A stretch of DNA of 64,000 bases from Clostridia bacterium. Lineage in GTDB: Bacteria > Bacillota > Clostridia > RGIG6154. The notes under the pieces are model-generated. The model ran no database searches. It saw only the letters and a program-made list of their open reading frames with translations, and was not told where the DNA came from. A program made the translations under genes and the position numbers. The first letter of the stretch is position 1; each line of letters starts with the position of its first letter. Positions 3,059 to 58,679 of the stretch are shown piece after piece. The stretch covers positions 10,908-74,907 of the forward strand of contig JAZRDC010000068.1 in NCBI GenBank assembly GCA_045660065.1. Reading direction: 5' to 3'.

Positions 3059-4987
3059 GTGAAAGAATATAAAGTAAAAGACTTATTCGCTGAAGCACGA
3101 ATGGAAGATGTATGCATAAATGGTAAAATCGGTGCTTTGATGGACACATTCTTCAGGGAAAGAGTGTTGTCTGATTTTGCTAAAAATGTTATATATAAAG
3201 AAACTGAAGATGCTTTCCGCAATCAGATTGATGATGAAGCAGGAATTTATGGCATCTGGCAGGGCGAATACTGGGGTAAATGGGTTATAAGTGCGGCAAG
3301 AGTTGCAAGGTATTACGGGAACGAAGAACTCAAAGCCTTTTTGAAAAAGGCGGCATATAATCTTATGGAGTTCCAACGCGAAGACGGATATCTTGGTACA
3401 TATAAAGACTCTGCTTTTGTGTATCCTGCTGACCCTGAAGTTACCAAAGCCACTTTAGGTTGGGAGTGCAACTGGAACTGGAACATCTGGTGCAGAAAAT
3501 ACACTCTTTGGGGAATGGTTGAACTTTATCAGCTTCTTGGCGACAAAAAAATCCTTGAATGTGCTGTCCGCCATGCAAGTCAGTTGGTTGATGAAGTTAA
3601 AGAGAAAAATATTATAGTTGCAAAAACAGGAACTTTTTCAGGTGTTGCAAGTTGTTCTATTATGAAACCGATTCTTATTTTGTATCGCATTACAGAAGAT
3701 AAAAAATATCTTGATTTCTGCCTTGAAATTGCAGATTATTGGGAAAAAGAAAAACCGGGACTTATTGTTAACTCTTTAGCGGACAAAGACACCTGGGATT
3801 GGTATGATGATTTTAAATCATGGTCAAAGACCTATGAATCTCTTTCTTGTTTTGACGGATTGTTGGAACTTTATCGTGTAACAGGTGAGAAAAAATATCT
3901 TGATGCTACCGAAAAATTTTATGAAATCTTAGAAAGATGCGAAAAAAATCTTTTGTTCAGCGTTGGATATAACGATAACTACAGTAATGCTATAGCAGAA
4001 ATTAATGCTCTTACAGAACCTTGCGATGCAATTCATTATATCCGTGTTTGTCACGAGTTATTTAAACTCACAGGCAAGGTGAAATATCTTGACAGCTTAG
4101 AACTTTGCTATTTTAATCCTATGCTTGCAAGTCCCTGTAAAGACGGCAAGTGGGGAGCAAGAGTTGTCAGAGGCGCAAGTATGCAGGGGTATGCACACTA
4201 TCAGGCGAAAATGGAGCATAGCCATTGTTGCGTAAATAATATTCCAAGAGGTCTTTTGAACATAACAGAATGCTCTGTTATGACAAAGGGAAGTCAGTTG
4301 TTTGTGAATATGTACCATAACTATGATGCGTCTGTTGAAATTGACGGAAAGGCAGTAAAAGTAACTGTTAAAGGCGATTATGTTGCAGACAGCAGTGCGA
4401 AAATATATATCGATTCTTTGGTTGATGTTGTTTTGCGTATTCCTTTCTGGACAAAAACAGGAAAAGTTGTTGTAAACGGAAAAGAATTTATTGCAGAAGC
4501 AGGATTCTTTGCAATCAAAGCCACAGACATTCCTGAAATCGGCAAAAATACTATTGAAATTGAAATCGAATTTGACAACAGTGTTCAGATTTATCAGTTC
4601 AAAAAGCCTGTACCTCAGCATAAAGAGGGGGAATGGTGGTATCACAGCTGGTGCTGTTACAGAAACGGCGAGGAATGGAATTTTGACAAACACTTCGGCA
4701 GAAGCTTTTTAAACAGTCCTCGATGCACCTTAAGAAAAGGTGTTGTGCTTTTAAGCAGAAGTAAACTTATCGGCAACACCTCAGAAGAAATGTTTGACGG
4801 CATAAATCTTATCGATGACCAGTATACATGCACACTTCAAAAGTGCGAAACAGATGCAGATGTTCAGGGGATGTGGCTTGCAACCTTTACAAAAGGTGAT
4901 AAGAGCTTTACAACAAAAGTTTGCGATTTCCCATTTGCGGCAAACTTCGAACAGGCAGATCACGAATATTTCTCAATGTATTTTTAA
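3059..4987 (+). CDS. Glycoside hydrolase family 127/146 (beta-L-arabinofuranosidase-like, DUF1680)
   Basis: E-x-C (TEPCD) and CC (HSHCCVNN) Zn/catalytic motifs; GEYWGKW and NWNIW..KY segments typical of the family. Confidence 0.85.
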   Translation: MKEYKVKDLFAEARMEDVCINGKIGALMDTFFRERVLSDFAKNVIYKETEDAFRNQIDDEAGIYGIWQGEYWGKWVISAARVARYYGNEELKAFLKKAAYNLMEFQREDGYLGTYKDSAFVYPADPEVTKATLGWECNWNWNIWCRKYTLWGMVELYQLLGDKKILECAVRHASQLVDEVKEKNIIVAKTGTFSGVASCSIMKPILILYRITEDKKYLDFCLEIADYWEKEKPGLIVNSLADKDTWDWYDDFKSWSKTYESLSCFDGLLELYRVTGEKKYLDATEKFYEILERCEKNLLFSVGYNDNYSNAIAEINALTEPCDAIHYIRVCHELFKLTGKVKYLDSLELCYFNPMLASPCKDGKWGARVVRGASMQGYAHYQAKMEHSHCCVNNIPRGLLNITECSVMTKGSQLFVNMYHNYDASVEIDGKAVKVTVKGDYVADSSAKIYIDSLVDVVLRIPFWTKTGKVVVNGKEFIAEAGFFAIKATDIPEIGKNTIEIEIEFDNSVQIYQFKKPVPQHKEGEWWYHSWCCYRNGEEWNFDKHFGRSFLNSPRCTLRKGVVLLSRSKLIGNTSEEMFDGINLIDDQYTCTLQKCETDADVQGMWLATFTKGDKSFTTKVCDFPFAANFEQADHEYFSMYF

Positions 4988-4995
4988 TAAAAAAG

Positions 4996-5027
4996 GAGAA
5001 AACTCAACGGAGTTTTCTTCTTTTTTT
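4996..5027 (+). terminator. Intrinsic terminator
   Basis: agaaaactc-aacg-gagttttct followed by T-run. Confidence 0.8.
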
Positions 5028-5109
5028 ATTGAAATTGAAGAAAAAATGTGGTATAATTGGCAAATAGACGATTTGGTGGATTTACACTTTTTCATATGGA
5101 TATGAGGAG

Positions 5110-5805
5110 ATGAAACGAAAAATGGAAGAAAAAATTTTTGAGGGACTTAATTATCTGATATCTTATCCGAAGGGATTTCAGGAAGATAGAAAATATCCTT
5201 TAGTTATATTTTTGCACGGTGCAGGAACTCGTGGAGAAACAACAGAACTCTTAAGAAACAACAAGTGTGTTCAAAACCTTATAAAACGTCAGGATGAAAG
5301 AGGTTATATCCTTGTTGCCCCGCTTTGTAAAAGAGGGGACTGGTTCGAATGGATGTCCATTTTGGTTCATTTGGTAGAAACTTACCGTGAAATTTCGTAT
5401 ATTGACAAAACCCGTATTCATCTGACCGGTAACAGTATGGGTGGTTACGGCACTTGGGCGCTTGCTATATTGCATCCTGATTGGTTTGCCTCGGCAATGC
5501 CAATTTGTGGTGGAGGTATCGGCGCATTTGCAATGAACTTGGTGAATCTTCCTATCCGTACCTTTCACGGCCTTCGGGATAAAACGGTAGATCCTATCGA
5601 AAGTCTGCAGATGGTAAAAGCCGTGAATATGAATGGCGGTTATGCCGAGCTGATTCTATTTCCGGAACATGCTCATAATTGCTGGGATGAGGTTTACTCG
5701 GACGAAAAAAACTACGATTGGCTACTTTCTTTCAGTAATTCTCAGGATAATCCAGTATCAGAAGATGTTTCTACAACTTATTATGGTAATAATAGCAATT
5801 TTTAG
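5110..5805 (+). CDS. Alpha/beta-hydrolase (phospholipase/carboxylesterase-type esterase)
   Basis: FLHGAG, nucleophile motif GNSMGG, HG..D and HNCW triad motifs. Confidence 0.85.
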   Translation: MKRKMEEKIFEGLNYLISYPKGFQEDRKYPLVIFLHGAGTRGETTELLRNNKCVQNLIKRQDERGYILVAPLCKRGDWFEWMSILVHLVETYREISYIDKTRIHLTGNSMGGYGTWALAILHPDWFASAMPICGGGIGAFAMNLVNLPIRTFHGLRDKTVDPIESLQMVKAVNMNGGYAELILFPEHAHNCWDEVYSDEKNYDWLLSFSNSQDNPVSEDVSTTYYGNNSNF

Positions 5806-5945: not shown

Positions 5946-6800
5946 ATGTATAAAATTATTGACAAAAAAATATTGAATCCTACGGTAATTCAGCTTATGA
6001 TTGAAGCACCTTTGGTTGCAAACAAAGCAAAACCAGGGCAGTTTATTATCCTTCGCGTGGACGAAGAGGGAGAAAGAATTCCTCTTACAGTTGCAGGTGT
6101 TAATAAGGAAAATGGGACTGTTAAAATCATTTTTCAGGTGGTAGGCGGAACAACCAAAAGACTTTCATACAAGGAAGCAGGGGAGTATATTCAGGATTTC
6201 GTTGGCCCTTTGGGTGAAGCAACACATCTTGATGGACTTAAAAAAGTCTGTATCGTAGGCGGTGGCGTTGGTTGCGCTATTGCTATGCCTGTTGCACAGG
6301 AATTGCACAGACTTGGTGCTGAAGTTACAAGCATTATCGGTTTCAGAAACAAAGACCTTTTGATATTGGAAGATGAGTTTAAGGCTTGTTCTGACAGATT
6401 ACATATTATGACAGATGACGGCTCATACGGAAGAGAAGGAAATGTTACAATTCCTTTGAAAGAAATGTTAGATGAGGGCGAAAAGTTTGATATGATTATC
6501 ACAATCGGGCCTTTGATTATGATGAAGTTTGTAGTTGAAACTGCAAGACCATTCGGCATACCTGTTACTGCGTCTATGAATCCTATTATGATAGACGGAA
6601 CAGGAATGTGTGGCGGTTGCAGATTGACGCTTAACGTTGACGGCAAAAAGGTAACGAAGTTTGCCTGCGTTGACGGTCCTGATTTTAACGGATACGAGAT
6701 TGATTTCGATGAGGCAATGTCAAGGGGAAGAATGTATTCTGACTTTGAACGTCACGCCTTTGAAGAAAGTTGCAATCTCTTTAATAAGGAGGTGCTTTGA
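5946..6800 (+). CDS. nfnA: NfnA, electron-bifurcating transhydrogenase small subunit (copy 1)
   Basis: PGQFIILR..GERIPLT, GGGVG, DGTGMCGGCR...CVDGPDF; paired with nfnB. Confidence 0.85.
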   Translation: MYKIIDKKILNPTVIQLMIEAPLVANKAKPGQFIILRVDEEGERIPLTVAGVNKENGTVKIIFQVVGGTTKRLSYKEAGEYIQDFVGPLGEATHLDGLKKVCIVGGGVGCAIAMPVAQELHRLGAEVTSIIGFRNKDLLILEDEFKACSDRLHIMTDDGSYGREGNVTIPLKEMLDEGEKFDMIITIGPLIMMKFVVETARPFGIPVTASMNPIMIDGTGMCGGCRLTLNVDGKKVTKFACVDGPDFNGYEIDFDEAMSRGRMYSDFERHAFEESCNLFNKEVL

Positions 6801-6802
6801 TA

Positions 6803-8209
6803 ATGGCAAATATGGCACCAAAAAGAAACGAAATGCCAACACAGGATGCATTGGTCAGAGCACATAACTTTGATGAAGTTGCTCTTGGCTATTCAGAAGA
6901 AACTGCCATTGACGAGGCAATGAGATGTCTTAATTGCAAAAATATGCCTTGTGTTGACGGTTGCCCCGTAAAAATAAATATTCCTTCTTTTATTGCTAAA
7001 ATTAAAGAAGGAGAGTTTGAAGAAGCATATCAGATTATAACAAAATCATCTTCACTTCCTGCAGTTTGCGGAAGAGTTTGCCCACAGGAAACACAGTGCG
7101 AATCAAAATGCGTTCGCGGTATTAAAGGCGAGTCTGTGGGAATCGGAAGATTAGAGCGTTTTGTGGCAGACTGGCACAATACATTTTGTGATAGCGAAGT
7201 TGTGCGTCCTGAATCAAACGGACACAAGGTTGCGGTTGTAGGGTCAGGCCCGTCAGGTCTTACCTGCGCAGGGGATCTTGCAAAAAAAGGCTATGAAGTT
7301 ACAGTTTATGAGGCACTTCACGCCGCAGGCGGCGTGCTTGTGTATGGTATACCTGAATTCAGACTGCCAAAGAAAATTGTTGCAAAAGAAGTAAACACTT
7401 TAGAAAAATTAGGTGTAAAAATAGAAACAAACGTTGTAATTGGCAAAACTCTTACTATCGACGAGCTTTTTGATATGGGCTTTGAAGCGGTGTTTGTAGG
7501 ATCAGGTGCAGGTCTGCCTAACTTTATGGGAATACCGGGCGAGTCATTAAAAGGCGTGTATTCTGCAAATGAGTTTTTAACAAGAAGCAACCTTATGAAA
7601 GCATATCTTTCAAATTCACAGACACCTGTTATGAAAGGCGGAAAAGTTGCAGTAGTAGGTGGCGGAAACGTTGCTATGGATGCGGCAAGAACTGCTTTAA
7701 GACTTGGTGCGGAAAAGGTTTATATTGTGTACCGCCGTTCAATGGACGAGCTTCCTGCAAGACGTGAGGAAGTAGAACATGCAGAGGAAGAAGGAATTGA
7801 ATTCAGACTTCTTTGCAATCCTTTGGAAATCATCGGCTACAACAATCCCGACGATCCAAGAGATGCCCAAAACGGTTTTGTTACAGGCATGACTTGCATA
7901 AAAATGGAACTTGGCGAGCCTGATGAAAAAGGCAGAAGACGTCCTGTGGAAATCCCGGGCAGTGAATTTACCATTAATGTTGACACTGTTATTATGTCAA
8001 TCGGTACATCACCAAATCCTTTGATAAAATCTACAACAGAAGGCCTGGAAGTAAATTCAAGAGGCGGAATTGTTGTAAACGAAGAGGGTCTTACATCAAG
8101 AAGCGGAATTTATGCAGGCGGCGATGCGGTAACAGGTGCGGCAACAGTAATTTCTGCAATGGGAGCAGGAAAAACTGCAGCTAAAGCCATTGACGAATAT
8201 CTCAAATAA
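6803..8209 (+). CDS. nfnB: NfnB / GltA-like NADPH-dependent oxidoreductase large subunit (copy 1)
   Basis: RCLNCK..PC..GCP Fe-S motifs, CGRVCPQE, GSGPSG, GGGNVAMD, AGGDAVTG; SD aaggaggtg before ATG 6803. Confidence 0.85.
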   Translation: MANMAPKRNEMPTQDALVRAHNFDEVALGYSEETAIDEAMRCLNCKNMPCVDGCPVKINIPSFIAKIKEGEFEEAYQIITKSSSLPAVCGRVCPQETQCESKCVRGIKGESVGIGRLERFVADWHNTFCDSEVVRPESNGHKVAVVGSGPSGLTCAGDLAKKGYEVTVYEALHAAGGVLVYGIPEFRLPKKIVAKEVNTLEKLGVKIETNVVIGKTLTIDELFDMGFEAVFVGSGAGLPNFMGIPGESLKGVYSANEFLTRSNLMKAYLSNSQTPVMKGGKVAVVGGGNVAMDAARTALRLGAEKVYIVYRRSMDELPARREEVEHAEEEGIEFRLLCNPLEIIGYNNPDDPRDAQNGFVTGMTCIKMELGEPDEKGRRRPVEIPGSEFTINVDTVIMSIGTSPNPLIKSTTEGLEVNSRGGIVVNEEGLTSRSGIYAGGDAVTGAATVISAMGAGKTAAKAIDEYLK

Positions 8210-8234
8210 AGAAAAAAGTTGCAAGGAGATTAGT

Positions 8235-8441
8235 ATGACACAGGAACTTTTAGAAAGAATAAATTTTCTGGCAAAAAAATCAAAAGCCGAAGGCCTTTCA
8301 GAAGAAGAAAAAGCAGAACAGCAGGTTCTTCGTGCTCAGTATATAAAAGAGTTTCGTCAGGGTGTGTCAAACACTCTTGACAACACTTATATAATGGACG
8401 AACAAGGCAACAAAAGAAAACTCGAAAGAAGGGGAATGTAA
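8235..8441 (+). CDS. DUF896 (UPF0291) family protein
   Basis: ERINFLAKKSKAEGLSEEEKAEQQ.LR..YI signature; SD aaggag. Confidence 0.85.
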   Translation: MTQELLERINFLAKKSKAEGLSEEEKAEQQVLRAQYIKEFRQGVSNTLDNTYIMDEQGNKRKLERRGM

Positions 8442-8684
8442 AAAAAGCCCAGAACAAAAAAATGGCTTGATATCAATTTGCAAAGTAACAATAAAACTTG
8501 GAATTTTATACAGTAAGTAGAAAATCCTGATAAAATCAGGATTTTCTTTTTAATAAAAGCCATTTTTGTTACGAAAAAACTTCGCCTCTCGACGTACCTT
8601 TGTACGCCTTCGGGTACCCAAACACCAAAGGGAGCCTTTGGCGTTTGCTCAGTTTTTTCGTTCTGAACATTTTTTCCTATCCCC
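8431..8684. repeat. Palindromic intergenic repeat element, copy 1
   Basis: The right ~125 nt is clearly homologous to 30416-30541. Nested inverted repeats. A 16-bp direct repeat occurs at 8427-8442 and 8688-8703. Confidence 0.85.
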
Positions 8685-8687
8685 CGA

Positions 8688-8729
8688 AGAAGGGGAATGT
8701 AAATTAATTTACATTCCCTTTCTTTTTTT
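8688..8729 (+). terminator. Palindromic terminator, probably the original DUF896 terminator
   Basis: gggaatgtaaatt/aatttacattccc followed by T-run; the left arm duplicates the end of the DUF896 gene. Confidence 0.7.
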
Positions 8730-8811
8730 ATGTCAAAGCCCTCAAATATAATAATTGCATTTTATGTCGTTTTATGGTATAATCTAATGTGAATAAGTAG
8801 GGAGTGATTAT

Positions 8812-9681
8812 ATGAGAAAATTCGGAGACAGATATGACGCAAAAAGAGTGCGTGATATCGACGGTGTGCATCACTATATGGCATACTTGATGCCAAAGCG
8901 ATGCGATGCAGAAGTTTATATAAATCAGCAGATTGATATTACAGAACTCTTAAAATATATAAACGAAAAAAATGCAAGTGGTGAAAGAAAAGTAACTCTT
9001 TTCCATTGCTTTATTGCAGCTATTGCAAGAACAGTCAAAATGCGTCCGCTTTTGAACAGATATATTTCGGGTAAGCATTTTTATGACAGACATGAAATTT
9101 CAATGGGTTTTACAATCAAGAAAAAATTTACCGACCACTCTGAAGAAACCCTTATGATTTACAGACCGAAAAATGATGAAAACTTAACTGCAATTACAGA
9201 TAGACTTTCACCAAAAGTGAAAGAGGCTAAAAAAGAAAAAGACAATGGTCAGAGTGTTGACGATATTTTAAATATCGTTAAAAAGTTGCCAAAACCAATA
9301 ATGCATATTTTTATGGCTCTTATGAGATTTATGGACAACTACGGACTTATGCCAAAGGCGTTCAGTAGTGTTGATACAAATTACTGCACAGTTTTGTTGT
9401 CTAACTTAGGAAGCATTAAGTGTGATGCAGTTTATCATCACTTAAATAATTTTGGTACAAACGGTATTGTTATCACAATTGGTGAAATGCATAAAGAAGT
9501 TATGCTTGATGAAAACAACGAACCTGTTATAAGAGATGTTGTAAACATCGGTGCAACTTTAGATGAGAGAATTGCAGACGGATTTTATTTTGCACGCTCA
9601 CTTAAACTTATAAAGTATTTGTTTAAAAATCCGCATCTTTTGGATAAAACATTAGGGGAGGAAATTGATTTTGAATTCTGA
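8812..9681 (+). CDS. Stand-alone 2-oxoacid dehydrogenase E2-like acyltransferase catalytic domain
   Basis: LSNLGS motif and C-terminal TLDERIADG (E2 enzymes have DHRxxDG); no lipoyl domain. Confidence 0.75.
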   Translation: MRKFGDRYDAKRVRDIDGVHHYMAYLMPKRCDAEVYINQQIDITELLKYINEKNASGERKVTLFHCFIAAIARTVKMRPLLNRYISGKHFYDRHEISMGFTIKKKFTDHSEETLMIYRPKNDENLTAITDRLSPKVKEAKKEKDNGQSVDDILNIVKKLPKPIMHIFMALMRFMDNYGLMPKAFSSVDTNYCTVLLSNLGSIKCDAVYHHLNNFGTNGIVITIGEMHKEVMLDENNEPVIRDVVNIGATLDERIADGFYFARSLKLIKYLFKNPHLLDKTLGEEIDFEF

Positions 9682-19176: not shown

Positions 19177-20037
19177 ATGGACTTTAAAAAATTTGAAATC
19201 ACAACTAAAAAAGTGCTCAATGAGCAGGTAACACTTTTGAAGATTTACGCGCCTAAAGTTGCAGCAAAAGCACAACCCGGGCAGTTTATAATTTTCAGAA
19301 TTGACGAACAGGGGGAAAGAATTCCTCTTACCATCGCAGATTATGACAGAAATGAAGGAACTGTTACCATAATCTTTCAGCAGGTTGGTGCATCAACAAT
19401 GCGTCTTGCTGAAATGAATGAAGGGGACTGCCTTTTGGATTTTGTGGGACCTTTGGGTACTGCATCTCACTTGGAGGGCTATAAAAAAGTTGCGGTAATT
19501 GGCGGTGGCCTTGGTACTGCTATTGCATATCCGCAGGCTAAAAAACTTTTTGAACTTGGATCTGAAGTACATATTATTACAGGCTTCAGAAACAAAGATC
19601 TTGTTATTTTGGAAGAAGATTGCAAAAAGGTGAGCAATAAATGCATTGTTGCAACAGATGATGGTTCAAACGGTAAAAAAGGTTTTGTTACTGACGTTTT
19701 AAAGGAACTGATTGAAGAAGGAAATAAATACGATCTTGTTATTGCAATCGGACCTTTGGTTATGATGAAGTTTGTGTCAAAACTTACAAAAGAGTATGGC
19801 ATTAAAACAATAGTAAGTATGAATCCTGTTATGATTGACGGAACGGGAATGTGCGGCGGATGCAGAGTAACCGTTGGCGGGGAAACAAAATTTGCCTGCG
19901 TGGACGGCCCTGATTTTGATGGCCATTTAGTTGATTTTGATGAAGCGATTATGCGTTCAAAAACTTTCGCTGAAATGGAAAATCAGGCAAAAGAAGCACA
20001 TATCTGTAAAAGACCGGGGGTGTTTGTAAATGGCTGA
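19177..20037 (+). CDS. nfnA: NfnA (copy 2)
   Basis: Same motifs as copy 1 (PGQF, DGTGMCGGCR, CVDGPDF). Confidence 0.85.
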   Translation: MDFKKFEITTKKVLNEQVTLLKIYAPKVAAKAQPGQFIIFRIDEQGERIPLTIADYDRNEGTVTIIFQQVGASTMRLAEMNEGDCLLDFVGPLGTASHLEGYKKVAVIGGGLGTAIAYPQAKKLFELGSEVHIITGFRNKDLVILEEDCKKVSNKCIVATDDGSNGKKGFVTDVLKELIEEGNKYDLVIAIGPLVMMKFVSKLTKEYGIKTIVSMNPVMIDGTGMCGGCRVTVGGETKFACVDGPDFDGHLVDFDEAIMRSKTFAEMENQAKEAHICKRPGVFVNG

Positions 20038-21413
20038 TATTTTGAAAAAAAATAGAGATGCCTCAGCAGGCACCTGATGTAAGAAACAAAAATTTCGACG
20101 AGGTTGCTTTAGGATATACCAAAGAGCAGGCAATGGAAGAAGCGGAGCGTTGTTTGAATTGTAAAACAAAGCCTTGTATGAATGGTTGCCCTGTTAATGT
20201 TAAAATTCCTGAATTTATTGACCTTGTTAAAAAAGGCGACTTCGAGGGCGCATACTATAAAATCAAGGAAACAAGCGCGCTTCCTGCAGTTTGCGGAAGA
20301 GTTTGCCCTCAGGAATCACAATGCGAAAAGTATTGTGTAAGAGGGGTAAAAGGCGAAAGTGTTGCAATCGGAAGATTAGAGCGTTTTGTTGCCGATTACT
20401 TTATGGAAAATTGCGTTGAAAAAGAAGTAAGCATAGAGAAAAACGGTAAAAAAGTAGCAGTAATCGGTGCAGGTCCTGCAGGACTTACCTGTGCAGGCGA
20501 TCTTGCAAAGAAAGGCTACGATGTTACAATTTTTGAAGCATTTCATAAAGCCGGCGGTGTTTTGGTTTACGGAATTCCTGAATTCCGTTTGCCTAAAAAA
20601 ATCGTTCAGGCAGAAATTGATAAATTAAAGGCATTGGATGTTAAAATCGAACTTGATACAGTTGTCGGAAGAACTGTTGAAATTCCTGAACTCTTTGATG
20701 AGGGTTTTGAAGCGGTGTTTATCGGAACAGGCGCAGGACTTCCGTCATTTATGAAAATGCCGGGTGAAAACTTAAACGGAGTATATTCCGCAAACGAGTT
20801 TTTAACAAGAGTTAATCTTATGAAGGCATATAAATTCCCGGAATATGACACCCCTGTTTACATAGGTAAATCTGTGGCGGTAGTCGGCGGCGGTAATGTT
20901 GCTATGGATGCGGCACGCTGTGCAAAACGCCTTGGCGCTGAAAATGTTTATATAATTTACAGACGCGGCGAAGAAGAAATGCCTGCAAGAAAAGAAGAAA
21001 TCGAGCATGCAAAAGAAGAGGGAATTGAATTTAAACTTTTAACCAATCCTGTTGAAGTTTTAGGTGATGAAAAAGGTTGGGTAAAAGGAATTAAATGTGT
21101 TAAAATGGAATTGGGTGAGCCTGATAAATCAGGCAGAAGAAGACCTGTTGTAATAGAAGGTTCTGAATATGAAATCGAACTTGAAAATGTAATTATCGCA
21201 ATCGGTCAGACCCCGAATCCTTTAATAAAACAAACCACAGAGGGGCTTGAGACTCAGCCGTGGGGAGGAATAATAGCCGATGAAGAAACAGGCAAAACAT
21301 CTTTAGAGGGTGTTTATGCCGGCGGAGATGCCGTAACAGGCGCAGCAACAGTAATTCTTGCTATGGGAGCAGGAAAAAAGGCTGCAAAGGCTATTGATGA
21401 ATATTTAAGTTAA
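20030..21413 (+). CDS. nfnB: NfnB (copy 2); natural start at 20030 is out of frame by one base in an A8 tract; in-frame ORF begins at 20058
   Basis: Same motifs as copy 1. A7 instead of A8 at 20045-20052 gives MADILKKIEMPQQAP. Confidence 0.8.
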
Positions 21414-21458
21414 AAATTTTAATTTTGCTATAAAGCAAAGAAAAGGAGATGTGTCAAA

Positions 21459-22817: not shown

Positions 22818-23062
22818 TGCTCAATGCGAAATTATCATTTCGCATTGGTTTTGCAAATTTGTTCGCTCGCGCATATTTTGTTGCGGGCAACAAAATATCA
22901 AATTTATAGGAATAAAATCCCAGGCACATGTCCTGGGATTTTATGATTTAAGCATTTTTAGTACAGCTTCGGGTTCGGGTTGCCCGTTGTGAGAATTTTT
23001 TCCTATTCCCGTTGGGGACAATGTGCAATTATCATTTCGCATTGGTTTTTCAAATTTGTATA
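22818..23062. repeat. Palindrome-rich region flanked by 33-bp direct repeats; divergent relative of the 8431 and 30303 elements
   Basis: Direct repeats at 22830-22862 and 23027-23059 (1 mismatch); several hairpins; shares gtac..cttcggg and ttttttcctat.ccc with the other copies. Confidence 0.6.
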
Positions 23063-30114: not shown

Positions 30115-30294
30115 ATGGCAGTTCCAAAGAGAAAAGTATCTAAAGCAAGAAGAGATAAGAGAAGAGCTAATTGGAAATTGGCAGTACCGGGCATGATCGC
30201 TTGCCCACAGTGCGGTGAACTCGTTATGCCACACAGACTTTGCCCTAAATGCGGTTATTACAAGGGAAGAGAAGTAATCAAAGTAGAAGCGTAA
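30115..30294 (+). CDS. rpmF: 50S ribosomal protein L32 (not in the ORF track)
   Basis: [20 protein letters not shown]...CPQCG...[12 protein letters not shown]; SD ggagg. Confidence 0.97.
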
Positions 30295-30302: not shown

Positions 30303-30541
30303 GGGGATGTTAAAAATGCCCAGAGCACAAAAAGGCACACTATATGAGTGTGTAAGATTAATAGTTTGAATACTAATTAGAAAAATCTCAATATATTGGG
30401 ATTTTTCTTTTTTTGGTGCCTTTTTGTTATAAAAAAACTTCGCCGTTCGACGTACTTTTGTACGCCTTCAGGTATCCAAACACAAAAGAGAACTTTTGTG
30501 TTTGCTCAGTTTTTTTATTCTGAACATTTTTTCCTATCCCC
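30303..30541. repeat. Palindromic intergenic repeat element, copy 2
   Basis: Homologous to 8431-8684 with compensatory changes in the stems. Confidence 0.85.
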
Positions 30542-49820: not shown

Positions 49821-49896
49821 AGGGGTATAGCTCAGTTGGTAGAGCAGCGGTCTCCAAAACCGCGTGCCGTGAGTTCGAATCTTACTGCCCCTGCCA
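49821..49896 (+). tRNA. tRNA-Trp (CCA)
   Basis: Acceptor stem aggggta/tgcccct, anticodon stem gcggt-ctCCAaa-accgc, TTCGA T-loop, encoded CCA end; 76 nt. Confidence 0.97.
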
Positions 49897-50020
49897 AACG
49901 AAAGAACCTTGATATGGCTTAATAAATGGCTTTATCAGGGTTTTTGTTTTGTTTTAAAAATAATTTTGAATATTTTGTTTTTAGTGAAAAAGTGTTAAAA
50001 AATATAGGGTTTTTGAAAAT

Positions 50021-50041
50021 ATTGTTGTCAAAATTGTTGTC
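50021..50041. repeat. Candidate integrase arm-type sites
   Basis: attgttgtc at 50021 and 50033, between att and the integrase stop codon. Confidence 0.5.
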
Positions 50042-50056
50042 CAAAATGGTGAAAAA

Positions 50057-51187
50057 TTAAAGCTCGTTGAGCTTGGTTATTGCTTCTTCTTTTTGCTCGT
50101 CCATCAGGTGGACATAGGTGTCGTAAGTGAAGGAAACTGATTCGTGGCCGAGAAGTTCGGAAACAATTTTTATATCTGTGCCTTTTTTTATCAGGAGTGA
50201 TGCAAAGGTGTGCCTAAGGGCGTGCAGACCAACATATTCATAGCCGAAGGCATCGAGCATTGAGTATAGTGTTCTGGTTAGGTTTCTTGGTGATGGCTGA
50301 TTGCCCTGGGTGTTTGTTATTACGAGGTCTGTTCCTGATTTCCCTTCTGTCATAATCTTGAAGGCATCTAATGCTTTTGTACCCAAAAATATTTTTCTGT
50401 TTGATTTTTTTGTCTTTGGTGTGTTCTGGGTTATGGTTTCATATTTTGTTTTAGAGTTATCAGAACGCGTTTTAACTGTTTTTACATTCTTTTTTATTAT
50501 TATCTGATTTGTTTTTGCATCATAGTCGTTTATGGTAAGTGCCAGAGCTTCTCCGATTCTTAAACCAGTATATATTAAAAATATGATTGCATAATCAAAC
50601 TGATAATAAGGTTTTCCCGTTTTCCACTTTTTACCTACAAGGGTGTTTAAATTGTTTACCTGTTCTTCGGTTAAAAATTGTATTTCCTTTATATCGTTTT
50701 TCTTTTCCCGGGGGATGATTATATCTTCTGCGGGATTTTCTTTTAAAACCTTGTTTTTGATTGCCTGCTTAAATATCTGATTGAGGTTCTGATGGATCTT
50801 CCTTAATACAGAGTATGACATATCGGAATTATCAAAGAGAGTTTCCTGGATAACATCAGTTGTGATTTCGTCCAGAGGAAGAGAACCAAGTGCAGGAAGA
50901 ATGTGGCCTGTTACTATCCATTCTACTGTATCATAAGATGAACGCTTTAGAGATTTGAATTTACTTTTCATCCAATTTTCGGCAAAGGTACTTAAAAGTT
51001 GCTTCTCACCTTTTATATAACCTTCTTCGTAGTCTTTGATATAAAGTTTCATTTTGCGCATAGCATCCTGTGCTGATTTGGAAGAATAAAAGCTTTTTCT
51101 TTTGGAATCAATCATTACAGAAGCCATCCAGCGCCCATCGGAACGTTTTACAACGGTTCCTTCTCCTTTTAGTCTTTCTTTTGCCAT
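50057..51187 (-). CDS. Phage tyrosine integrase
   Basis: N-terminal GEGTV.KR.DGRW arm-binding domain; TGLRIGE, H.LRHTFAS, LLGH, TY.TY.H. Confidence 0.96.
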   Translation of the reverse strand: MAKERLKGEGTVVKRSDGRWMASVMIDSKRKSFYSSKSAQDAMRKMKLYIKDYEEGYIKGEKQLLSTFAENWMKSKFKSLKRSSYDTVEWIVTGHILPALGSLPLDEITTDVIQETLFDNSDMSYSVLRKIHQNLNQIFKQAIKNKVLKENPAEDIIIPREKKNDIKEIQFLTEEQVNNLNTLVGKKWKTGKPYYQFDYAIIFLIYTGLRIGEALALTINDYDAKTNQIIIKKNVKTVKTRSDNSKTKYETITQNTPKTKKSNRKIFLGTKALDAFKIMTEGKSGTDLVITNTQGNQPSPRNLTRTLYSMLDAFGYEYVGLHALRHTFASLLIKKGTDIKIVSELLGHESVSFTYDTYVHLMDEQKEEAITKLNEL

Positions 51188-51239
51188 AATTTCACCACCT
51201 TTGTTTGAGTTCCGTCCTTAAAACAGGGCGGTTGTTTTT

Positions 51240-51608
51240 TTAATCAATAGGATGTGTATTCATCCATAAAAGTACAAGTGTAGGGATTGTTATTAAAACT
51301 CCAATTATTGTTAATACTTTTCTTTTGGCTGAAGGCTTGTTGTTTTCGAATTCGCTGAACCCAAAGAAGCAAACAAAGCCAGATATCCAAAATATTGGTA
51401 TTAATATAAAAAGGCATGCAAATATTTTTAAAATGGTATCAAGAATACCTTCGTATGTGTGAATTAATAAAATGCACATTATTGTGTAAAGCGTAGTCCA
51501 GAACATTGATTTTGACATGAAAAGAGCCTTTTCAGAATCCTTTAACTTTTGGCGCAATTCGTTTCCTTCTTTTAATTCTTCAAAATATAAATCTTTATAA
51601 TCGTCCAT
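51240..51608 (-). CDS. Hypothetical membrane protein (3 TM segments)
   Basis: SD aggag; three hydrophobic stretches. Confidence 0.75.
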   Translation of the reverse strand: MDDYKDLYFEELKEGNELRQKLKDSEKALFMSKSMFWTTLYTIMCILLIHTYEGILDTILKIFACLFILIPIFWISGFVCFFGFSEFENNKPSAKRKVLTIIGVLITIPTLVLLWMNTHPID

Positions 51609-51621
51609 TTTAATCTCCTTG

Positions 51622-52125
51622 TTAAAAACACCTTGAGCAGGGGGCGTAGTAGTTTGCTTCTGCTGCTTGTATGGTGTATGTAGTTGTACCTGTTTTATTT
51701 TTTAAATAACTGCATGTGGGCTTATGATATTTTCTGCCTGTGCGGGTTACAATAACTTGCTCTGTGATATCAAGAATGTCGTTAGGGGCTTCCTGTTCTT
51801 TAGCAGGTTGTTGTGTTGATTGTGCGGGGACATCTGCTTTATACGAAGCGGCAGCACTTTCAACTTTTATAATCAGTTCATTAATAAAATCGGAAGTTGT
51901 TTCTGTTTTAGTTTCTTCCATAGGTTCTGCAACCTGGATTATAGTTTCTTGCAGAGCAGAAGCGGGAATGAAAGTTTTTGAATATGCAAAACAACTAAAA
52001 GCGATGGAAAGCAATAATAAAAGTGTGAGTAAAGTTGAGCCTTTACCTGTTTTTTTTATTTTGAGGGTACAAGAGCCTTGTTGCAAAAACATTTGCTTCT
52101 TCCTCTTTATGATCTGATGTGTCAT
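51622..52125 (-). CDS. TM-anchored protein with C-terminal Ada-like metal-binding domain; possibly the frameshifted C-terminus of ImmA
   Basis: Hydrophobic LLTLLLLLSIAF; VIVTRTGRKYH..TC.YL...PCSRC; 83-nt overlap with immA across an A8 tract. Confidence 0.7.
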   Translation of the reverse strand: MTHQIIKRKKQMFLQQGSCTLKIKKTGKGSTLLTLLLLLSIAFSCFAYSKTFIPASALQETIIQVAEPMEETKTETTSDFINELIIKVESAAASYKADVPAQSTQQPAKEQEAPNDILDITEQVIVTRTGRKYHKPTCSYLKNKTGTTTYTIQAAEANYYAPCSRCF

Positions 52126-52441
52126 AATAACCGTTTGTTTGATTTATATGGTTCATATAAATATGTCCTATCTCGTGGCATAGGATGAATGGCAAATCAC
52201 TGCTGTGGACTGCACCACGGTAAAATGTGTAACTTTTCTTTCCTATTGTACAACTTACAGAAGAATAATGCTTTGCATGTTCTGTGAGTTTTAGCTCTTT
52301 TAATAAATCTTCGCTGCTTTCATAGGTAAGAAGAGTGTATCCCATTTTTGATATTATGTTTTTAATATCGCGAAGTCCGGGAATACCTTTTAATTTAAAC
52401 TCCTTTTTTAATTCCTTTACTGCTAAATCGACATTTTTCAT
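52043..52441 (-). CDS. ImmA/IrrE-family metalloprotease (anti-repressor type)
   Basis: HEIGH (HExxH) and EEEANVFA motifs; SD ggagg; located between cI and int. Confidence 0.88.
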   Translation of the reverse strand: MKNVDLAVKELKKEFKLKGIPGLRDIKNIISKMGYTLLTYESSEDLLKELKLTEHAKHYSSVSCTIGKKSYTFYRGAVHSSDLPFILCHEIGHIYMNHINQTNGYYDTSDHKEEEANVFATRLLYPQNKKNR

Positions 52442-52524
52442 TATAAAACCTCCAAATTATAGTTTATACTACAATATTAAAGGTTTTATTTGGTAATTAC
52501 AATGGTAAATTGTGTTAGGAGTTA

Positions 52525-53208
52525 TTATTTAGATTTAGTTTTAGATTTGTCGTCGTGCATAAAGTATTTGATTTTACTGCGTATGCCATCTATATGTTCA
52601 TTCAAATCATCATTAATGTTGTTTCCCATAGGGTCAAGTATAAAATCAACGCCCTCACGCCTTGCAAGTTTTGCAGCAGGCACGAAATCACTATCGCCTG
52701 CGATAAGTATTATCTGATCAACTTGCTTTTTCAATACCATAGATGCAATATCAGTTCCAAGTTTCATATCCATAGTTTTTTGTTTTATGTTTAGGACAAA
52801 ATCGGTTTCTGTTATATCTTCTAAAGTTCTTTTGCCTGAAAATAACGATTTAACTACATTGGGCTTTAGATTATAACCAAGGTCATTGTCAGACAAGCGA
52901 CCTAATCTTAATGCAAATTTTCTTTTTGATTTTAAACTGTTTAAAAAAGTAGTCATCCAATCGTAAAGTTCATTTTTCATTTTTATATTTTTCTTTAAGA
53001 AAGGGTGATAAACATTTTTGTCAGTTGGTGGACAATCGTAATAAAATATACGATATAGCAAGGCTGCTTCAGGTCCTTTATTTTGTAAATGCAACCTGCA
53101 ATAATGCTCCAATTCTTCTGCTCTAACCTCTGGAATTTTGTGTCCAAAAAGGTGCTCAGCTCTTTTGCGGTAAAAACCACCGTCTACAAGTACAGCGACT
53201 CTAATCAT
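52525..53208 (-). CDS. NYN-domain (LabA/DUF88, PIN-fold) putative ribonuclease
   Basis: VLVDGG, IFYYD, QK..DM.LG.D, GDSDFVPA...R.EG motifs; SD aaggag. Confidence 0.88.
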   Translation of the reverse strand: MIRVAVLVDGGFYRKRAEHLFGHKIPEVRAEELEHYCRLHLQNKGPEAALLYRIFYYDCPPTDKNVYHPFLKKNIKMKNELYDWMTTFLNSLKSKRKFALRLGRLSDNDLGYNLKPNVVKSLFSGKRTLEDITETDFVLNIKQKTMDMKLGTDIASMVLKKQVDQIILIAGDSDFVPAAKLARREGVDFILDPMGNNINDDLNEHIDGIRSKIKYFMHDDKSKTKSK

Positions 53209-53232
53209 AAGTAAATCTCCTTAATAAAAGAT

Positions 53233-53321
53233 AAAAAAAGAGCCCAAGGTTTCATCACTCTCCGTATGGTGGAGGGAATACTCCCATGGGCGTATAATCA
53301 CAATATACAATTGTTATTGTG
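53233..53321 (-). ncRNA. Putative ~90-nt structured RNA/attenuator upstream of the NYN gene
   Basis: Follows TTGACA-18-TATAAT; 5' hairpin, long imperfect GC-rich hairpin, then U7. Confidence 0.55.
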
Positions 53322-53326
53322 TTATT

Positions 53327-53356
53327 ATTATAATATGCCCAAAGGGTAGTTGTCAA
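53327..53356 (-). promoter_or_regulatory. SigA promoter of the sRNA-NYN cassette
   Basis: Perfect TTGACA (53356-53351) and TATAAT (53332-53327), 18-nt spacer. Confidence 0.75.
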
Positions 53357-53388
53357 TACAATTTCAAAAAAAAATAAAAATTTTTATC

Positions 53389-53859
53389 TTATGTGTGTTT
53401 TACAACATTGTCATCAGAGTTGACACCGCCACCGTCTGCAGCCCATTTTAATGTATCATCAGAATCAACTGTTCTGATCTTATCATTAAAGTCTATAACA
53501 GTCTTTTTGTCTTCCTTAGTATATTTTTCATTTCCGATAAGGATATCGACATATTCATTGGTTTTTTCTTTACCAAGGTCATTTAATTGGTTGTATTTTT
53601 GTAAAAACGATAAATTGTTTGATATGTTAGCCAAATGTTTTTCTTCAGATGTACCTAAAAGCCAATCGGGGTTTACATTTAAATAATTTCCAATCGCTTC
53701 TATGATAGGCTTTTTAATAGTGCGAATTTTACCTTTTTCATATCTTTGAATTGTCGATTTATTTAGACAAAGTTTTTTTCCAAGTTCTTCTTGGGTGAGA
53801 CCTGATTCAATCCGAATTTCTTTAATTCTGCTTGCTATTAATAATTTGTTGGGGGTCAT
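53389..53859 (-). CDS. CI-like phage repressor (XRE HTH)
   Basis: RIKEIR...LTQEELG..L..NKSTIQRYEKG; divergent from the early genes. Confidence 0.92.
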   Translation of the reverse strand: MTPNKLLIASRIKEIRIESGLTQEELGKKLCLNKSTIQRYEKGKIRTIKKPIIEAIGNYLNVNPDWLLGTSEEKHLANISNNLSFLQKYNQLNDLGKEKTNEYVDILIGNEKYTKEDKKTVIDFNDKIRTVDSDDTLKWAADGGGVNSDDNVVKHT

Positions 53860-53894
53860 TTTATCATCACCTCAAATCAATGTTAGCATAAAAA

Positions 53895-54003
53895 ATTGCA
53901 AAATGCAATACAAAAACAACAAAAAAATAAAAAAAATTGCAAAATGCTATTGACAAGTTGCAAAATGCGTGTTAATATATATTCGAAAGTTGCATAACGC
54001 AAC
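53895..54003. promoter_or_regulatory. Genetic switch: four operators (consensus GTTGCA-aaa-TGCAAC) overlapping divergent promoters
   Basis: Sites at 53895, 53936, 53958 and 53989; rightward TTGACA at 53950; leftward TTGCAT-17-TAACAT. Confidence 0.85.
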
Positions 54004-54020
54004 GAAAGAGAGGTGAGATT

Positions 54021-54224
54021 GTGGGAAAGATTCCTTATATGACAGAAAGGATAGTCAATTTCAAAGAGTTGAGAAATACAATTGAAGGTTGTTATATTAT
54101 GGCTCAATTTCTGCAACAAGAAAGCCCTCATAAGGAGAGCTTTGAACCATTAATTGAAGATTTAAAAAAAGCACGAGATTTCCAATTCGAAATTGAGGTA
54201 AAGAAGATAAGTTATTGCGAGTAA
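54021..54224 (+). CDS. Phage hypothetical protein, first early gene
   Basis: SD gaggtg, GTG start. Confidence 0.6.
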   Translation: MGKIPYMTERIVNFKELRNTIEGCYIMAQFLQQESPHKESFEPLIEDLKKARDFQFEIEVKKISYCE

Positions 54225-54496
54225 CCATCTTCATTTACATCAATCTGTTGCTTGAATTCTACTGAAGCCAGACAACGACTTCTCATGGTGCAGAATCTAT
54301 ATATGCTTAATTTAGGATCTTGTTTGGAAGGTGGCAATTTGAGGTTTTGCACTATGGGACATTCACAGGCGACATAGGTTGCAACAGAAGGATTATCTTT
54401 GTCATTAAAATGATACCTTGCTAAAAGTGTTATTTCTTTGTTCCATAACGGACAATGGTGTTGTTTGCCGACAAAGGTGTAGTACATCTCATTCAT
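54212..54496 (-). CDS. Cys/His-rich hypothetical protein with its own leftward promoter
   Basis: SD gaggtg; TTGTAA and TG-TATAAT upstream. Confidence 0.7.
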   Translation of the reverse strand: MNEMYYTFVGKQHHCPLWNKEITLLARYHFNDKDNPSVATYVACECPIVQNLKLPPSKQDPKLSIYRFCTMRSRCLASVEFKQQIDVNEDGYSQ

Positions 54497-54561
54497 AGGT
54501 TATCACCTCACTTTCAAGGGTGATTATAACATAATAAACAAATTTTTACAAGGAGGGAATT

Positions 54562-54765
54562 ATGGTTAATACAAGTAAAATAAAAAGTCGTATGGTACTT
54601 TGTGGAATTACACAAAGTGGTTTGGCAGAAAAGCTTAAGCTTTCGCAAACAACTGTAAACCAGAAGATTAATAATGCAAGAAAAACTACAATTGAAGAAG
54701 CGTTATTAATTAAAAAGCATCTTGATATATCTGATTGCGAATTTGGAGAATATTTTTTTGTTTAA
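54562..54765 (+). CDS. Cro-like HTH protein 1
   Basis: KIKSRM...ITQ..LAEKL.LS..TVNQKIN; SD aggaggg. Confidence 0.85.
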   Translation: MVNTSKIKSRMVLCGITQSGLAEKLKLSQTTVNQKINNARKTTIEEALLIKKHLDISDCEFGEYFFV

Positions 54766-54768
54766 AGA

Positions 54769-54832
54769 GTTGCAAAATGCAACAAGTGACAAAATATCAC
54801 TTGTGAAAATCAGAAGTGACGAAACGTCACTT
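54769..54832. promoter_or_regulatory. Fifth GTTGCA operator plus two operators of a second family (AAGTGAC-N5-(G/A)TCACTT)
   Basis: gttgcaaaatgcaac at 54769-54783; aagtgacaaaatatcactt at 54784-54802; aagtgacgaaacgtcactt at 54814-54832. Confidence 0.75.
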
Positions 54833-54849
54833 TAGAGAGAGGTGAGTAA

Positions 54850-55041
54850 ATGTTAAGAATAGCAGAAGTGAGAAAGTCAAGGGGTCTTTCACAAGAAGAA
54901 GTGGCGAAAGAGATAGGCATAGATAGAAGCACTGTAGCAAAGTGGGAAACAGGTAAGGCAAAGCCAAAAGCTGATACATTGCTTGCTTTATCGGCGTTGT
55001 TTAATTGTTCTATTGATGAAATTCTTGGGAATGAGAGGTGA
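54850..55041 (+). CDS. Cro-like XRE HTH protein 2
   Basis: RKSRGLSQEEVAKEIGIDRSTVAKWETG..KP; SD gaggtg. Confidence 0.9.
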   Translation: MLRIAEVRKSRGLSQEEVAKEIGIDRSTVAKWETGKAKPKADTLLALSALFNCSIDEILGNER

Positions 55042-55045
55042 TGTT

Positions 55046-55246
55046 GTGGATTTAGAAAAATTAAATTCTAAAATCAAAGAAATTGGAATAAAAAAGAAAG
55101 CCATTGCCAAAGAGTTTGGGATTAGCGTTCAGGCACTAAATAAAAAACTGGCAGGGGATACGAAGATTACAGTAGATGATGCAAGTATATTTTGCGAGGT
55201 TTTAAGAATTAAGAGTGATAAAGAAAAAGTTGAGATATTTTTATGA
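55046..55246 (+). CDS. Cro-like HTH protein 3
   Basis: GIKKKAIAKEFGIS.QAL.KKL.G; SD gaggtg before GTG 55046. Confidence 0.8.
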   Translation: MDLEKLNSKIKEIGIKKKAIAKEFGISVQALNKKLAGDTKITVDDASIFCEVLRIKSDKEKVEIFL

Positions 55247-55467
55247 TTGATCAGGAGGAGAGTATGAAAATAACTGTTCAGATTTGGGAGGAAAATCAAG
55301 GAATAAATTTTGATATAGAAGTACCAAGCAAAAAAGTAGCTTCAGATATTATATCAAAGTTTATTGAAGAAGATGTAAGTTTGGTGAGAATAGAAAAGCA
55401 GCACCAAAACGATGCTGCAAATCAGATAAATTCTAAAGGTTCTGGTGTATCCAGTCCCACTGCTTAG
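55243..55467 (+). CDS. Phage hypothetical protein
   Basis: Translationally coupled to the upstream gene (ATGA overlap). Confidence 0.5.
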   Translation: MIDQEESMKITVQIWEENQGINFDIEVPSKKVASDIISKFIEEDVSLVRIEKQHQNDAANQINSKGSGVSSPTA

Positions 55468-55696: not shown

Positions 55697-55868
55697 TTAT
55701 TCACCTCCAATCAATAATAGAATGTTGTGTTCGAACTAAATATATTATACCATATATTGTTAAAAATCACAACTTTTACTTTCTATCTTTATAAGTGAAG
55801 ATGTTGTAAATGGCTTAAAATCAAGGTTGAATAGTGTTAAAAATTTTACGTTTAAAGGAGAAATTGAA

Positions 55869-56261: not shown

Positions 56262-56278
56262 TTTTTACAATTAAATAT

Positions 56279-58667: not shown

Positions 58668-58679
58668 AGGAGAGAAAAT

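Follow-up and report, generated by a model that had tools for sequence, protein, structure and literature searches.

In the stretch of DNA analysed here (64,000 nt of contig JAZRDC010000068.1 from the Clostridia bacterium assembly GCA_045660065.1, positions 10,908 to 74,907 of the forward strand; hereafter the window), a gene coding for a DUF896 protein runs into a structured, non-coding insert that we refer to as copy A (8431-8724). The gene order across 8209-8812 is gltD-DUF896-element, followed by a gene for a 2-oxoacid dehydrogenase acyltransferase-like protein. An initial annotation, made from the letters of the DNA alone, had read the insert as a non-autonomous mobile element that targets gene 3' ends. 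We find that copy A is one member of an uncatalogued family of non-coding interspersed repeats in uncultured gut Clostridia, the members of which lie at gene 3' ends, keep a Y-shaped fold on the strand opposite the gene, and appear to take the place of terminator hairpins. The features of copy A and of the two further copies in the window are collected in Table 1, where labels such as L010 and L062 denote loci and a bare L denotes the left end of the element.

Table 1 Positions of copy A, its parts and the other copies of the element (window coordinates)
Feature	Position	Strand	Description
DUF896 gene	8235-8441	+	68 aa; Pfam DUF896 E 1e-21; last codons (..RRGM) and TAA lie inside the left end of the element
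Direct-repeat copy 1, AAGAAGGGGAATGTAAA	8426-8442	+	5 nt of flank, then the start of the L motif
L end, GGGGAATGTAAAAAAAGCCCAGAAC	8431-8455	+	strand of closing helix P1, partner of R; from family alignments
Arm P5	8453-8570	+	stem 8453-8468 / 8557-8570 around a sequence-variable region
Arm hairpin, AGAAAATCCTGAT-AAA-ATCAGGATTTTCT + TTTTT	8519-8552	+	intrinsic-terminator-like, oriented for the upstream gene; from terminator scan
Conserved domain	8571-8661	+	P2 (8571-8581 / 8651-8661) around P3, the TTCGGGTA junction and P4
P3	8591-8597 / 8602-8608	+	inside P2
P4	8619-8631 / 8635-8647	+	inside P2; of varying length or absent across the family
R end, GTTCTGAACATTTTTTCCTATCCCC	8660-8684	+	second strand of P1; conservation persists among copies retrieved through the L end only
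Hairpin T and T-run	8687-8731	.	arms 8687-8705 / 8706-8724; left arm is direct-repeat copy 2 (8687-8703); terminator-like, flanked by A- and T-tracts
Second full copy	30303-30541	+	8 nt past the stop of rpmF (L32; rpmF 30115-30294); arm terminator 30379-30415; no T hairpin
Third, partial copy	22960-23010	+	3' half of P3 through the R end; local nhmmer E 8e-7

The direct repeat that brackets the insert, given as 16 bp in the initial annotation (8427-8442 and 8688-8703), is exact and in fact one base longer: AAGAAGGGGAATGTAAA is found over 17 nt at 8426-8442 and 8687-8703 and, with one indel allowed, reaches 19-20 nt (CGAA(A)GAAGGGGAATGTAAA, 8423-8442 and 8685-8703). As had been described, its first copy covers the stop codon of the DUF896 gene (TAA, 8439-8441), and its second forms the left arm of a 19-bp hairpin (8687-8724) that is followed by a T-run; a terminator scan calls this hairpin (8686-8725) together with one other in copy A (8519-8547). 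The repeat exceeds what chance would give, as any 17-mer direct repeat within 400 nt was present in only 2 of 200 composition-preserving shuffles of the window. All four of the nested stems proposed earlier could be located (8458-8468 / 8557-8567, 8571-8581 / 8651-8661, 8591-8597 / 8602-8608 and 8619-8631 / 8635-8647), together with a fifth helix that had been overlooked, in which the two ends of the insert pair with one another (8431-8455 with 8660-8684). When compared with shuffles, the fold of the insert had an RNA z-score of -8.0 on the minus strand and -6.7 on the plus strand, and a DNA z-score of -8.8 on the minus strand.

It had also been proposed that removal of the insert with one copy of the repeat restores a stop codon running straight into its terminator. 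This arrangement is not ancestral at this locus, since in the close relatives L055, L056, L060 and L061 the order is gltD-(HAD)-DUF896-SASA, with DUF896 directly joining the SASA gene. The homology of the DUF896 gene to L061 and L055 stops at about 8435, and the C-terminus differs. As this point coincides with the L end, copy A sits at a rearrangement breakpoint and supplies the DUF896 stop codon. No empty allele of this locus was obtained among the relatives, in which the gene order differs (DUF896, then SASA). We also noted that the window contains a second pyrK-like/gltD-like gene pair (19267-21414), with ~66% nucleotide identity to the pair that lies upstream of copy A (5946-8209).

Copies of the element were found well beyond this locus. 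One exact right-end 22-mer is matched by 51 loci in 19 metagenome-assembled genomes (MAGs) of uncultured Clostridia, at up to 8 loci per MAG, with the carriers labelled as Oscillospiraceae, Acutalibacteraceae or Eubacteriales; a degenerate left-end 22-mer is matched by 82 metagenome loci, many of them in assemblies named as human-gut. In all, the family is represented at more than 130 loci, which come from MAGs of uncultured, Oscillospirales-type gut bacteria and from metagenomes, with 66-67 distinct sites, an element size of ~175-300 bp and no conserved open reading frame (ORF). Many copies lie at contig ends, so that the repeats appear to break assemblies. Two contigs from viral collections also carry copies, one of them 3' of a major capsid gene. 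The window itself has two full copies and a fragment, all other loci lie elsewhere, and the prediction of a multi-copy, structured, non-coding element with no transposase nearby was thus borne out.

Within the window, the right half of the second full copy is 88% identical to copy A by BLAST of the region against the window, and the left half has diverged, with stems changed on both sides. The partial copy lies within an insert of ~156 nt, on either side of which stands a direct repeat of 41 nt (22822-22864 / 23019-23061, 3 mismatches) that includes the terminator hairpin of the upstream gene itself (AATGCGAAAT-TATC-ATTTCGCATT).

The family appears to be undescribed. The Rfam 15 covariance models gave no gathering-score match to the element in the window or in 7 related loci, where only a tRNA was found, and copy A searched at E<=10 and a short-form copy at E<=5 gave noise only. 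The suggested kinship with the Clostridiales-1 motif is therefore unsupported, as neither this nor any other Rfam family matched even at E<=10. In addition, BLAST found no match to the element in GenBank phages or PLSDB plasmids, and no description of this family was found in a full-text literature search.

The anatomy of the element was drawn from alignments of 31 and 42 copies, in the plus-strand orientation of the window. The unit starts typically 0-15 nt downstream of the stop codon of the left-hand gene with the L end, GGGG(A/C)TGTAAAAAAAG(T/C)CCAGA. This is followed by stem P5, which encloses about 100 nt of unconserved sequence, usually including a GAAAAAnn..nnTTTTTC hairpin and then a T-run, and by P2, which encloses hairpin P3 (GGCGTAC-nnnn-GTACGCC), the junction TTCGGGTA and the variable or absent hairpin P4. 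The unit closes with the R end, TTCTGAAnnTTTTTTCCTATCCCC. Complementarity between L and R extends over about 20 of 25 nt, and by pairing the two ends form a closing helix of ~20 bp (P1) around a three-way junction with one conserved arm (P2-P3-P4) and one variable arm (P5). The element thus has the terminal inverted repeats looked for in a miniature inverted-repeat transposable element (MITE). At about half of the sites (27/63 by a strict pattern), R is followed by an A-rich spacer and a perfect hairpin, T, with the pattern GGGG(C/G)TGTAAA..loop..TTTACA(G/C)CCCC and a T-run; its left arm (T-left) repeats the L motif, and L can also pair with its right arm (T-right). At other sites, a second copy in tandem or a hairpin of another type is present instead.

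Tandem arrays, deletion derivatives and nested insertions all occur in the family. In a 174-nt short form the long arm is missing and P5 is cut down to a short hairpin, while in a 52-nt mini form L is fused directly to R, leaving the closing hairpin only (L081, 10906-10957); P2-P4 are missing from the copies in L032, L071 and L133. At L039 (2575-2612), the body is missing and a T hairpin comes after an L-like motif. A homologous insertion of ~190-215 nt, for which Rfam gave no match, lies inside P3 at L010 (~4860-5080), L018 (~1660-1880) and L065 (~1650-1840), in two unrelated assemblies, and is either an expansion domain of P3 or a second small element that targets P3. Another nested element, of ~275 nt and with terminal inverted repeats GGCTGATGAT, enters at an identical point just past P3 at different loci (L043, ~5120-5400; L136, ~4150-4430; L140, ~3105-3385), and uninterrupted alleles of these loci are found in L137, L119, L127, L107 and L142.

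We then asked how well the fold is conserved. On the strand antisense to the upstream gene, 46 base pairs were examined across 42 diverse copies. Pairing holds in 96.4% of the 1923 cells, compared with 88.3% for shuffles and 41-56% for slid partners, and double changes are seen in 25 of the 46 pairs (166 cells); none of 500 shuffles reached any of the observed measures. The pairs of P1 are kept in 98% of cases and covary (for example, GGGGAT/ATCCCC versus GGGGCT/AGCCCC), and double changes affect 6/10 pairs of P5, 9/10 of P2 and 4/7 of P3. Because RNAalifold returned nothing for the P3/P4 sub-alignments, the pairs of P3 were entered by hand and tested by pair counts.

The initial annotation had remarked that mismatches in the core stems become G-U pairs on the minus strand. 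This holds for copy A and for the family as a whole: on the strand antisense to the upstream gene, 127 cells are G.U and 17 are A.C (104 versus 8 in a first alignment). Pairs that switch from A-U to G-C or back do so by way of a minus-strand G.U, as far as intermediates are seen, and a G.U on this strand is kept in 41 of 42 copies. In 30 of 31 copies the fold is also more stable on the minus strand, with means of -82.9 (minus) and -71.1 kcal/mol (plus). Hairpin T has no such asymmetry (6 versus 6). The Y-shaped fold is kept on the strand opposite the gene.

One explanation for this pattern is that the copies give rise to structured non-coding RNAs, transcribed antisense to the upstream gene and kept for a cellular function as cis-antisense regulators, as a fail-safe antisense terminator, or as guide or scaffold RNAs. 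The strength of the covariation and the placing of G.U pairs specifically on the antisense strand argue for it, as do the persistence of the fold in diverged copies at a single rpmF site and an orientation that is tied to the gene and not to GC skew (both described below). Furthermore, on the antisense strand the closing helix ends in GGGG/CCCC, often with a U-run behind it (mean of 3.1 A in the 5 nt that precede L). We nevertheless judge this explanation unlikely. No conserved promoter for the antisense strand was found by eye in T, the spacer or the R end, where the spacing of -10-like sequences is variable and no -10 is conserved. T and the arm terminator bracket the antisense strand from its two sides; just a 2-10-nt spacer and T lie directly upstream, and the arm terminator blocks the other direction. 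In addition, the family tolerates large deletions, nested insertions and presence/absence polymorphism, has no Rfam match, and has one copy behind a phage capsid gene, where antisense transcription is improbable.

The placement of the element follows gene 3' ends, as the initial annotation had suggested. Of the 67 distinct sites, 44 are callable, and at 40 of these L abuts a gene 3' end. The element lies between convergent genes at 21 sites and between co-directional genes with L next to the upstream gene at 8 (plus about 8 in which a small upstream gene was not called), and has the opposite co-directional arrangement at 3-4; no site was called between divergent genes. Its orientation follows the local gene strand (30 versus 15, p=0.04). 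The terminator slots occupied include those of housekeeping genes such as rpmF and spoIVA, together with that of the phage capsid gene.

A location directly 3' of stop codons would also be expected of a cis-acting 3' untranslated region (UTR) or terminator module that works on the sense strand, in mRNA stabilisation or regulated termination, through alternative pairings (L:R, R:T-left, T-left:T-right), and that has spread by recombination only. The succession L, R, T-left, T-right resembles the layout of an attenuator, and terminator-like hairpins are present on the sense strand. However, the pairing is selected on the opposite strand, the arm terminator would stop most sense transcripts ahead of the conserved domain, the convergent gene pairs around many copies leave no downstream gene to regulate, and near-identical copies are found at unrelated loci, all of which makes such a module very unlikely. 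A riboswitch or attenuator reading of L, R and T was rejected on the strand evidence and context.

Several observations are signs of mobility. The copies in L025 and L040 are 98.7% identical and have unrelated flanks, and other pairs from the same genome are 92-96% identical, against a family mean of 71%. Filled and empty alleles are found in the spacer between rpmF and a DUF512 gene. This spacer is empty in L062 (94% DUF512 identity) and L068 (80%), where an ordinary terminator, CCCCCGTAC-loop-GTACGGGGG plus a T-run, follows rpmF; it is filled, 5-12 nt past the TAA, in the window, in L063 (88%), in L065-67 (84%) and in L071 (83%). In L065 the element is still followed by the right arm and T-run of the native terminator, and the window retains, after its second copy (30303-30541), a decayed remnant of the right side of the native terminator and the native T-run. 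The element thus lies at the former native rpmF hairpin, and has replaced it with no flanking duplication at this site. Alleles also differ between samples at single loci, through a deletion from R to T-right (L141 versus L078), the presence of T or a tandem copy (L120 versus L092), and the nested insertions that have uninterrupted alleles. At a site upstream of pyrK, filled in L010, L012 and L022, no comparison could be made, as the left-hand genes are non-orthologous. A bias towards 5' truncation, a sign of retroposition, is unsupported, since both L-only and R-only fragments occur.

Taken together, the near-identical copies at unrelated loci, the rpmF alleles and the tandem, deletion and nested forms support the earlier proposal of mobility. 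A check of copy number, empty sites and transposases had been recommended with it; the first two yielded many copies and empty rpmF sites, while the third gave no associated transposase within about 4-6 kb of 134 loci. The outcome against which the proposal had been set, namely a few copies in this window alone, an insert present at every orthologous locus and no empty site, is not what we see, given more than 130 loci and an rpmF spacer that is empty in L062 and L068.

The rpmF alleles raise the question of what the element supplies in place of the hairpin that it replaces. Across the family, the arm hairpin has the orientation of a sense-strand terminator, with a mean of 4.9 T in the 8 nt after it on the plus strand and of 3.0 A in the 8 nt before it, and hairpin T is a perfect palindrome with A- and T-tracts. 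A hairpin containing G+C with a T-run directly after it, the layout of an intrinsic terminator, is predicted at 8519-8547, at 8686-8725 and family-wide. As judged from sequence, the unit therefore appears to fill the slot between stop codon and T-tract, replacing the terminator hairpin of the gene and supplying predicted terminators of its own, and these hairpins would be expected to terminate transcription. The native rpmF terminator (L062, 1630-1700; L068, 1362-1440) shares CGTAC..GTACG with P3 of the element, a likeness that could be due to chance or could be a clue to targeting.

We also considered whether the direct repeat at copy A is an ordinary target-site duplication, as had been supposed. 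The motif GGGG(A/C)TGTAAA is found at the left end of nearly every copy and recurs as the left arm of T. T is identical among the copies of one genome (five JAZNHR loci all have GGGGGTGTAATTATTTTACACCCCC), and L and T-left differ at a diagnostic base (A versus C or G) at about 26 sites. No duplication of fixed length flanks the copies; most sites have no repeat beyond the motif, and extension of the flanking repeat past the motif is only marginally above that of permuted pairs (p=0.04). Since the motif is common to the family, T is the same within genomes and L differs from T-left, the repeat is mostly a matter of family architecture, inherited with the unit, and not a simple target-site duplication.

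There are three places at which the repeat reaches locus-specific sequence: copy A, L141 and the fragment at 22960 (17-20, 20 and 41 nt, respectively). The extension consists of CGAA(A)GAA upstream of the motif in copy A, of AAC/GTT into both arms of T in L141, and of the 41-nt repeat holding a native terminator at the 22960 fragment. These could have resulted from terminal redundancy in a tandem or circular donor, from a long duplication of variable length, or from conversion between L and T, and a process of duplication or terminal redundancy may be part of the mechanism. Two other accounts of T were set aside. T is not an independent family of terminators that the element targets, since 26 of 27 T-type hairpins adjoin an element; and the idea that T-left is made anew from L at each insertion was mostly rejected on the L/T-left differences at ~26 sites and the common T within genomes, although the three loci above do not fit this verdict.

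These data bear on the possibility of a classical double-strand MITE of DDE or Tn3-type transposon origin, in which L and R (or L and T-right) are inverted repeats bound by a transposase and the 16/17-bp repeat is a target-site duplication. The inverted repeats do begin with GGGG, and the entry of the repeat into locus-specific sequence at the same three places (17-20, 20 and 41 nt) would agree with this origin. We regard it as highly improbable, because almost all sites share one repeated motif and T is passed on as part of the unit, because the repeat varies in length and at most sites goes no further than the motif, and because neither the 127:17 wobble asymmetry nor compensatory changes in the inverted repeats would be expected of double-stranded ends bound by protein. 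Furthermore, no parent element was found in the 134 loci (about 4-6 kb on each side) or among the matches to the end patterns.

The search for a mobilising gene covered about 4-6 kb on each side of 134 loci. ORFs were clustered for 51 and then for 134 loci, which yielded a single 'recurrent protein', a spurious ORF that reads across the element; the remaining clusters were ABC ATPases, GltD, dehydrogenases and AraC regulators. Where two copies enclose genes, these are of the ordinary housekeeping type. By inspection, the 2 kb between two partial copies in L050 also has ordinary genes (spoIIIA- and Asp23-like), and no transposase was seen there. No RAYT (HUH/Y1) gene was found in loci of up to about 15 kb around copies, and no tnpA or tnpB genes were found near copies. 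Neither a group II intron nor a retron was indicated, with no Rfam intron match and no reverse transcriptase among the inspected neighbouring ORFs or the recurrent clusters.

Elsewhere in the window, a tRNA gene (49821-49893) is followed by genes for a tyrosine integrase (50057-51187, minus strand), a helix-turn-helix repressor, and phage VG64-like, ParB-like and GIY-YIG proteins. This region (49821-62981) is probably a prophage or integrative element at the tRNA gene that is unrelated to the repeat. A 17-mer, AAAAAATTGCAAAATGC, is found twice upstream of the prophage repressor region, at 53890 and 53931, 41 nt apart.

How, then, might the family have spread? The reading that we favour, and to which we give about an even chance, is that of a REPIN- or MITE-like non-autonomous mobile element with a single-stranded intermediate, which doubles as a terminator module. 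The element would be copied to new terminator sites through a single-stranded intermediate that is antisense to the upstream gene. We infer that this intermediate would more likely be single-stranded DNA (ssDNA) or cDNA than a dedicated transcript, and that an enzyme encoded elsewhere would mobilise it in trans.

A number of results weigh against this reading. No transposase, reverse transcriptase or recurrent protein family was found in the ORF clusters or inspected neighbours within the range searched, nor any IS or larger element sharing the ends of the repeat among the 134 loci or the matches to the end patterns. The sites show neither a target-site duplication of fixed length nor a short target motif that is conserved, and their flanks are just A-rich on one side and T-rich on the other. 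The orientation bias at co-directional sites is moderate (8 '++' versus 3 '--', or about 16 versus 4 with partly called sites). Local GC skew read in the orientation of the element, a weak proxy here as the flanks span only 6-14 kb, is positive at 22 loci and negative at 23, which argues against a replication-fork-coupled process of the IS608 type. Finally, the diverged copies at the one rpmF site all keep the fold through compensatory differences, which could reflect purifying selection for a cellular function and not selfish spread.

We also entertained a more far-reaching proposal, doubtful in our view, that the family embodies one of two novelties. The first would be a terminator-aimed mobility that requires no transposase borne by the element, in which a self-folding, Y-shaped unit of ssDNA or cDNA swaps in for the hairpin between A- and T-tract and a tandem or circular donor, longer than one unit, leaves the redundancy between L and T-left; the second would be a new multi-copy class of antisense structured RNAs at gene ends.

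Proteobacteria and a few Firmicutes have well-described small structured repeats; for the uncultured Oscillospirales-type bacteria, which are common in gut samples, we found no description of the present family. The presence/absence and tandem polymorphisms of the family may be of use as strain markers in gut metagenomes. If mobilisation is directed by hairpins or terminators and is single-stranded, the family would add a new case to the few structure-guided mobile DNAs; if an antisense RNA exists, it would constitute a new multi-copy RNA class.

Amongst known systems, the REP and REPIN sequences that are associated with RAYT genes in Pseudomonas and Enterobacteria are likewise short, non-coding and extragenic, with many copies per genome and no transposase in their interior (PMC3116915, PMC3337134). 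REPINs form a hairpin as ssDNA or RNA, which is kept although the spacer sequence is unconserved, their activity leaves long palindromes behind, and their flanking A's and T's have been read as terminator co-option (PMC3337134). The element resembles them in its complementary ends that would form a single-strand hairpin, its variable yet paired interior, its A/T flanks, its tandem and mosaic forms and its leftover palindromes. It differs in that its ends are plain inverted repeats instead of REP palindromes of 20-40 nt with a conserved tetranucleotide, its interior is a conserved three-way junction of ~100 nt instead of a simple spacer, and its copies number about 5-10 or more per genome instead of hundreds; the host clade is Clostridia, and no RAYT-like gene was found beside any copy. 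As neither REP palindromes nor a RAYT gene could be shown, we do not file the element as a REPIN.

Small interspersed repeats that fold in RNA and act on transcripts also include the Correia elements of Neisseria, ERIC in enterobacteria and bcr1 in Bacillus cereus. The pneumococcal BOX, RUP and SPRITE repeats offer a similar likeness, as small interspersed structured repeats of Gram-positive bacteria that fold in RNA and act on transcripts (PMC3049150). Like BOX, RUP, SPRITE, Correia, ERIC and bcr1, the element is a non-autonomous and strain-variable structured repeat of 100-300 bp in intergenic or 3'-end positions, which may provide terminators or mRNA structures; no sequence similarity was found between it and these repeats. 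For RUP, Correia and bcr1, target duplications are defined (TA, TTTAT) and there are candidates for the parent IS element. None of these repeats is known to replace a terminator hairpin or to carry a companion hairpin repeating its own end.

PATEs, which derive from IS200/IS605, and other HUH transposons likewise lack target duplications and have strand-specific hairpins with non-canonical pairs; a further likeness is that one strand bears a pair of hairpins, in direct order, that share their stem sequence (P1 and T in the element). Unlike these transposons, the element has no conserved 4-5-nt target by its left end, its orientation is uncoupled from GC skew, and its structured strand in the window is the opposite of that expected for insertion into the lagging-strand template.

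Two further systems provide analogies for strand-specific insertion directed by structures or terminators. Class C group II introns insert in association with intrinsic terminators, and the attC sites of integrons have a fixed position just after a gene and fold on the bottom strand. The element differs from the former in lacking intron domains and any Rfam intron match, and from the latter in lacking R'/R'' core sites, cassette arrays and an integrase, its neighbours being housekeeping genes. In summary, the family is of a known kind, that of the small structured interspersed repeats, and what is new is the replacement of a terminator, the companion hairpin that repeats the element's own end, and the conserved, strand-specific three-way junction.

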